DNA of 64,000 nucleotides from Escherichia coli (lineage in GTDB: Bacteria; Pseudomonadota; Gammaproteobacteria; Enterobacterales; Enterobacteriaceae): assembly GCF_050920415.1 (NCBI RefSeq), contig NZ_CP169309.1; one strand, written 5' to 3'. Positions 55,094 through 55,616 of the stretch are shown here, piece by piece (the stretch's first letter is position 1; each line of letters opens with the position of its first letter). A program made the position numbers and the translations under genes. A model generated the notes under the pieces. The model was not told the DNA's origin. It made no database searches and saw only the letters and a program-made list of their open reading frames with translations.

Positions 55094-55616
55094 AAAAATA
55101 ATCCTTCGCCTTGCGCAAACCAGGTACTGGTATTGTTATTAACGAGAAACGTGGCTGATTATTGCATTTAAACGGTGTAACTGTCTGCGTCATTTTTCAT
55201 ATCACATTCCTTAAGCCAATTTTAATCCTGTTCAAATGACGGTCTATGCTTAAAAAACAGCCGTATCAGCATCAATACTACTGAAGCAACTGAATTGTAT
55301 AAGTTAATTTAATGTTAAGTAATGATTCGTGCCGGGGCGATATCACGTTTTACCTGTCCACCGAAGATAATTATCAGTCTTTATCTAGCGTTCTAAGGTG
55401 TTTATCCCACTATCACGGCTGAATCGTTAATATTTTGCGAGTTCACGCCGAAATACTGATTTTTGGCGCTAGATCACAGGCATAATTTTCAGTACGTTAT
55501 AGGGCGTTTGTTACTAATTTATTTTAACGGAGTAACATTTAGCTCGTACATGAGCGGCTTGTGTGGATCCTGACACAGGCAAACCATCATCAATAAAACC
55601 GATGGAAGGGAATATC

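Follow-up and report, generated by a model that had tools for sequence, protein, structure and literature searches.

Layout and conservation of the gap

The window, the whole 64,000-nucleotide stretch of Escherichia coli DNA that was analysed, carries ydgH on the minus strand from 54149 to 55093, where its coding region ends, and pntA on the plus strand from the ATG at 55617, with pntB next downstream. The product of pntAB is the membrane transhydrogenase making NADPH, and that of ydgH is a periplasmic DUF1471 protein. The long gap that the original prediction pointed out between the two genes is real, with 55094-55616 comprising 523 bp of non-coding DNA (Table 1). The equivalent region of MG1655 (NC_000913.3 1677904-1678426) has the identical length of 523 bp and contains zero annotated features, although MdtU and other recent small proteins are included in that annotation. 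In a search with 901 nt around the gap, 5423 of the 5426 complete E. coli genomes gave a match, and the gap has served as a neutral chromosomal insertion site (PMC8407004).

A YdgH scan with one genome per species returned 80 loci, in 79 of which pntA lies divergently upstream of ydgH; at the remaining locus (L005) the contig stops short of pntA. Only gaps below 600 bp entered the alignment, which comprises 73 loci with gaps of 489-548 bp and the window, that is, 74 Enterobacteriaceae species. Gap length falls between 500 and 550 bp in 71 of the 74 (median 525; full range 489-548 bp). The third codon positions of pntA, which are 54.6% identical to the window as a mean over 73 species, served as the neutral yardstick. 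On this scale the gap is a mosaic, in which strongly conserved blocks (79-87%) alternate with spacers drifting at or below the neutral rate (55%), and 135 of the 523 columns are at least 97% identical in the 74-species alignment. The 15 differences that separate the gap of the window from that of K-12 are confined to spacers and the variable part of the pntA leader. The gap length, which had been called notable, is indeed kept beyond chance, but a long transcript is not the cause; rather, the constant length reflects conserved content.

Longer gaps are found in Buttiauxella (L075, L081), Dryocola (L080) and L082, where inserts of ~0.7-1.4 kb separate the ydgH ribosome-binding region from block E and all that is retained is the 26 nt adjoining the ydgH AUG together with the pntA-proximal blocks. 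The insert of Buttiauxella gaviniae (L075) contains a 275-codon ORF that, read by eye, encodes a putative GIY-YIG (Cho/UvrC-like) nuclease.

Table 1. Features of the ydgH-pntA gap and adaptive mutations located within it, in window coordinates
Feature	Position	Strand	Identity to window	Basis or remark
ydgH-pntA intergenic region, very probably a shared divergent control region	55094..55616	.		523 bp; gene layout, K-12 comparison, family alignment
ydgH 5' UTR, 57 nt, with Shine-Dalgarno AAGGA	55094..55150	-	87%	published TSS; conservation
ydgH core promoter region	55151-55200	-	81%
ydgH core promoter: extended -10 TGcAATAAT 55166..55158, -35-like CAGACA 55187..55182	55158..55187	-		promoter scan
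ArcA-like block	55296-55318		85%
ArcA-box-like direct repeat GTTAATTTAATGTTA	55303..55317	+		1 mismatch to GTTAATTAAATGTTA; two TGTTA-type repeats 11 bp apart
Cra (FruR) operator GCTGAATCGTTAAT	55418..55431	+		exact consensus match
Block E, 68 bp, family consensus TaGATCaCAggCgntATTTTCAGTAgGTTATAgaaAGTTTGTTACtGtTTtATTTT	55460..55527	+	79%	reaches from upstream into the pntA -35 region
Candidate pntA core promoter: -35 TTGTTA 55508-55513, 19-bp spacer, -10 TAACAT 55533-55538	55508..55538	+		promoter score
Variable part of pntA leader	55528-55578	+	35%
Probable pntA 5' UTR, ~72 nt	55545..55616	+		variable part with hairpin, then conserved CA-rich ribosome-binding block 55579-55616; TSS deduced from a figure legend in PMC6090065
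Upstream in-frame GTG (18 codons before the pntA ATG), unused as a start	55563..55565	+		frame and codon unconserved in most species; no Shine-Dalgarno ahead
pntA ribosome-binding block	55579-55616	+	83%
Upstream in-frame ATG (5 codons before the pntA ATG), unused as a start	55602..55604	+		unconserved in frame
pntA Shine-Dalgarno GGAAGGG	55604-55610	+		6-12 nt before the accepted ATG
Accepted pntA start codon, MRIGIPRE...	55617..55619	+		N-terminus conservation, structural alignment
Spacers between blocks	various		34-56%
Mutation, 1-bp deletion	55426			BL21; centre of Cra box
Mutation, G to A (pntA sense strand)	55496			BL21; block E, invariant column; same position as MG1655 delta-gnd SNP 1676048 (PMC6090065)
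Mutation, T to C (pntA sense strand)	55497			BL21; block E, invariant column
Mutation, SNP, base change not given (PMC6090065)	55607			MG1655 delta-gnd, v2 1675937; within GGAAGGG
Mutation, G to T (pntA sense strand)	55610			BL21; last G of GGAAGGG

That the gap conceals an unannotated small protein gene or small RNA gene is very improbable. Several ORFs of 20-36 codons are present in the window's gap, a 53-codon ORF (55312-55472) occurs in some Citrobacter and Enterobacter species, and a sigma-E holoenzyme SELEX peak has been reported near window ~55290, with a putative sigma-E promoter suggested upstream of ydgH (PMC11705850). The earlier statement that small ORFs are absent therefore does not hold for short ORFs as such, but it does hold at the level of the family, since no ATG ORF of at least 10 codons is common to more than 25 of the 74 species (the best group) and start codons and frames shift between genera. 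The sigma-E-like matches upstream of ydgH are weak (2 plus 1 mismatches) and none is compelling. In addition, terminator-like structures are absent from the gap, Rfam yields no match for a hidden RNA gene, the MG1655 annotation is empty here and the region is in use as a neutral insertion site.

Promoters, leaders and the pntA start codon

The transcription start site of ydgH has been mapped to MG1655 v2 coordinate 1676394 with 76 reads and a 57-nt UTR (PMC3415461 supplement), equivalent to window 55150 (minus strand). At 7 nt upstream of this start is the end of the extended -10 element TGcAATAAT, and a promoter is predicted at the aligned ydgH core-promoter position in 74 of 74 species. The strongest sigma-70-like match of the gap is TAGACC-16-TAAAAT (55219-55246, minus), which also points toward ydgH, is found in 6 of 74 species only and is without a reported start site.

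In Salmonella, ydgH is a validated target repressed by full-length SdsR, and the reporter fusion (-58 to +60) starts at -58, the position of the Salmonella ydgH start (PMC5137417). The situation is similar to the SdsR regulon, where an Hfq-dependent sRNA targets 5' UTRs, in that the Salmonella ydgH leader fusion is SdsR-repressed and the leader very conserved, but distinct in that the leader shows no pairing site better than chance (RNAduplex against shuffles: p = 0.34 for full-length SdsR and 0.09 for its first 35 nt). The stretch UUUGCGCAAGGCGAAGGAUUAUUUUU (55094-55119, minus), which immediately precedes the ydgH AUG, is near-invariant in the family, even where the remaining leader is replaced. 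Its conservation exceeds the need of a Shine-Dalgarno sequence, and an sRNA or a protein may bind there.

The position of the pntA start derives from a figure legend in PMC6090065, in which SNP v2 1675937 is placed '62 nt downstream of the pntA TSS' and SNP 1676048 49 nt from the TSS. Both SNPs are termed 'downstream' in that legend, and one statement must be a slip; we infer a start ~72 nt before the ATG, at window ~55545. The genome-wide TSS table of Kim et al. 2012 (PMC3415461) contains no pntA start, and a direct pntA start site sought in the supplements of PMC4161252, PMC4782308 and PMC2760140 was not obtained. The former table does list minor start sites inside pntA, 301 and 313 nt upstream of pntB, with one at v2 1674697; the minor intra-pntA start shown in full there has 2 reads.

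The best plus-strand sigma-70-like score in the gap belongs to TTGTTA-19-TAACAT, the -10 hexamer of which lies 7 nt upstream of the reported pntA start at ~55545. This candidate core promoter passes the score cut-off in 16 of 74 species only, and its GTAAC motif aligns in ~40 of 74. TAACAT is located in a poorly conserved stretch outside block E; Klebsiella, Raoultella and Kosakonia lack it, and in Pseudescherichia vulneris it is deleted. Since TAACAT is not family-wide, the family-wide pntA promoter may sit inside block E, in which case the leader would be ~85-125 nt long. All 74 species have a weak promoter-like sequence, TAGATC-17-TA(C/G)GTT.

The original prediction had considered either a long leader or a promoter region. 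With the ydgH start 57 nt and the pntA start ~72 nt from the respective AUG, both leaders are short; thus, the long leader is unsupported and most of the 523 bp lies between divergent promoters. The promoter region was the right alternative, in the form of two divergent promoters with regulator sites between them. Fold z-scores of both short leaders are unremarkable. The view that the region lacks strong palindromes is only roughly true: the folding energy of the pntA leader is ordinary (z = -1.25), but an 8-bp hairpin (55557-55564/55573-55580) and a 5-bp hairpin (55584-55588/55601-55605) are predicted within it. The hairpin GCUUGUGU/ACACAGGC (55557-55580) is Escherichia-specific, with a loop of GGATCC in the window and GGCTCC in K-12, while Escherichia whittamii has another loop on the same stem; other genera often have an unrelated GC-rich hairpin at the equivalent position.

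As had been noticed, the ORF opens 18 codons upstream of the accepted pntA start with the frame open and an in-frame start codon present. The codon at 55563 is GTG, not the ATG that was claimed, and a second in-frame codon, the ATG at 55602, had been missed; it is located 5' of the conserved Shine-Dalgarno block, which it overlaps by one base. A longer PntA N-terminus, translated from the GTG at 55563 or the ATG at 55602, would agree with the frame being open for 21 codons upstream, with the occurrence of ATG 55602 in most species and with the pntA of K. pneumoniae MGH78578, which is listed 12 nt longer than that of E. coli (1545 vs 1533 nt). Such an extension is nevertheless scarcely credible. 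Most species either lack GTG 55563 or have it in another frame, and in other genera indels that are not multiples of three and in-frame stops separate it from the accepted ATG (74 sequences). As for ATG 55602, Salmonella has it in a different frame (16-nt spacing), Kluyvera has a TAA stop immediately behind it, and Cedecea lacks it altogether. No Shine-Dalgarno sequence precedes either codon; GGAAGGG lies 6-12 nt ahead of the accepted ATG.

The N-terminus MRIG(I/V)P is that of PntA in every species checked, and in the structures of the homologues alanine dehydrogenase and Rhodospirillum PntAA, residue 1 aligns to the accepted pntA Met. N-terminal conservation, structures, the spacing of GGAAGGG and the unconserved upstream codons together indicate that the accepted MRIGIPRE start stands, and the proposed N-terminal extension from 55563 is unsupported. 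Clarke et al. are said to have obtained the accepted start in 1986 by N-terminal sequencing of the purified alpha subunit. The MGH78578 length suggests that some annotations may use an upstream start like ATG 55602.

Candidate regulator sites, block E and adaptive mutations

The classical ArcA box has the consensus GTTAATTAAATGTTA. Allowing up to two mismatches, the sole match in the 64-kb window is GTTAATTTAATGTTA, with one mismatch (0.18 expected by chance). This element resembles the direct-repeat boxes of ArcA-P in its 15-nt length with one mismatch to the classical box, in its conservation across the family and in that ArcA is a reported activator of pntAB (PMC3974632). It differs in its location, which is ~235 bp away from the start of pntA and ~155 bp from that of ydgH and makes it a candidate for either gene. 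Matches to the CRP pattern TGTGA-N6-TCACA are no commoner than chance, and block E holds only a right CRP half-site (TCACA, 55474-55478).

The published 14-nt Cra consensus RSTGAAWCSNTHHW is matched exactly at 55418-55431 and nowhere else in the 64-kb window, against 0.52 matches expected per 64 kb. A Cra SELEX site in the ydgH-pntA region and in vivo Cra repression of pntAB have been reported (PMC8085971), the exact site not being given there. In keeping with an operator of the Cra regulon, the match is exact, pntAB is reported to be Cra-repressed and the selected 1-bp deletion destroys the site. Unlike in other such operators, the site is ~120 bp upstream of the reported pntA start, which is far for simple promoter occlusion, and it is kept in Escherichia, Citrobacter and Salmonella only.

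Block E has a mean identity of 79%, compared with 55% at the third codon positions of pntA. Of 5422 E. coli genomes, 5388 carry it with at least 99% identity, and it is single copy, with no paralogous copies in these genomes. In Phytobacter massiliensis (L064), and in this species only, block E is interrupted at the 55501 equivalent by a MITE-like insertion of ~104 nt, which has inverted ends (TATACCC...GGGTATA) and a short TATA duplication. Operators of PurR, Fis, IHF, OxyR, MarA/SoxS, NadR, PhoP, Lrp and the LacI family were compared with block E by eye, using their consensus sequences, and none fitted; no known regulator motif among those tried explains it.

Published pntA-raising mutations from independent evolution experiments land in the Cra box, in block E and in the Shine-Dalgarno sequence (Table 1). 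The BL21 mutations come from laboratory evolution data (PMC9765567 supplement), in which the distances to both genes sum to 524 for each mutation, as expected for a 523-bp gap; the BL21 reference bases are the complements of the window bases, so that the mapping is valid. In the evolved delta-gnd strains, pntA mRNA is described in PMC6090065 as increased by 2.1-3.2 log2 units. The location of the adaptive mutations in conserved blocks argues that these blocks are the functional parts of the gap, as would be the case for a promoter/operator region.

Two of the mutations affect adjacent invariant positions of block E. The possibility that the SNPs at 55496 and 55497 both improve one -10 or -35 hexamer was rejected, since T55497C fits no hexamer; G55496A would create cATTAT 16 bp after aTcACA. 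Instead, we suggest that the shared cause of these adjacent hits would be a lost operator contact at the invariant GT of GGTTATAG. Tentatively, block E, which is hit repeatedly in cells evolving under a demand for more NADPH, may be the operator of a regulator new to pntAB or, less likely, an RNA-level element, a reading that we consider possible without favouring it. If true, block E would determine the level of transhydrogenase expression and would itself contain the family-wide pntA promoter, in place of the annotated -72 start.

An RNA-level element would require a longer, structured pntA leader that includes block E, starts upstream of ~55460 and acts as a riboswitch-like element, an attenuator or a target of an sRNA or RNase, the -72 end being a processing site. 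The order of a conserved block, a variable hairpin and a conserved ribosome-binding block does resemble structured leaders, and the 181 nt from 55460 to 55640 fold somewhat better than shuffles (z = -2.57, 3/200). The -72 promoter is not family-conserved, and one TSS data set is without a pntA start, as this arrangement would also allow. Yet Rfam gives only chance hits (E > 1; 54000-56500, permissive thresholds), a terminator-like hairpin with U-run is found in no genus, no convincing promoter is located upstream of 55460, and the legend in PMC6090065 puts the pntA start at -72. The proposed helices show no compensatory changes: their pairs are invariant or broken uncompensated, with the exception of one ydgH-hairpin pair that changes on both sides in 4 sequences. 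Moreover, within the only local helix the two adaptive SNPs would have opposite effects, G55496A breaking a G-C pair and T55497C turning U-G into C-G. A longer leader of this kind is therefore unlikely, and the RNA-level alternative for block E is a weak one.

Probable divergent control of ydgH and pntAB

Taken together, the 523 bp are very probably the shared divergent control region of ydgH and pntAB, with own promoters, short leaders and separate regulator blocks. In this arrangement, ydgH and pntA would each be transcribed from their own sigma-70-type promoter near their own end of the gap, with leaders of 57 nt and ~72 nt, and the ~390 bp between both start sites would be untranscribed, or at least not known to be transcribed. 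This intervening DNA would carry the ArcA-type direct repeat, and Cra would repress pntAB via the operator at 55418-55431. Block E, abutting the pntA -35 region, probably contains promoter elements, a site for a further regulator, or both. Translation of pntA would then proceed from the accepted ATG, driven by GGAAGGG. As such, the ydgH-pntAB control region is an already known and ordinary one, with no long leader, hidden gene or mis-annotated start.

The arrangement is similar to other divergent promoter regions of E. coli, of the sthA/fabR and ilvY/ilvC type, where back-to-back genes each have their own promoter and short leader, global-regulator sites are located in the shared DNA, and blocks form a mosaic with neutral spacers. 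The ydgH-pntA region differs in that the gap is longer than most, with ~390 bp between the starts, and its length is unusually constant throughout the family.

A large part of the NADPH in the cell is supplied by PntAB, the expression of which is often targeted in metabolic engineering and in laboratory evolution. The base-resolution map presented here explains the recurrence of adaptive mutations in the Cra box, at 55496/55497 and in the Shine-Dalgarno sequence, and singles out block E as a conserved block at which a further factor may act. We note that the BL21 lineages in which mutations of the pntA/ydgH gap became fixed had earlier acquired the argP point mutations Q206H and V125A (PMC9765567 supplement); ArgP may have a link to pntAB control.
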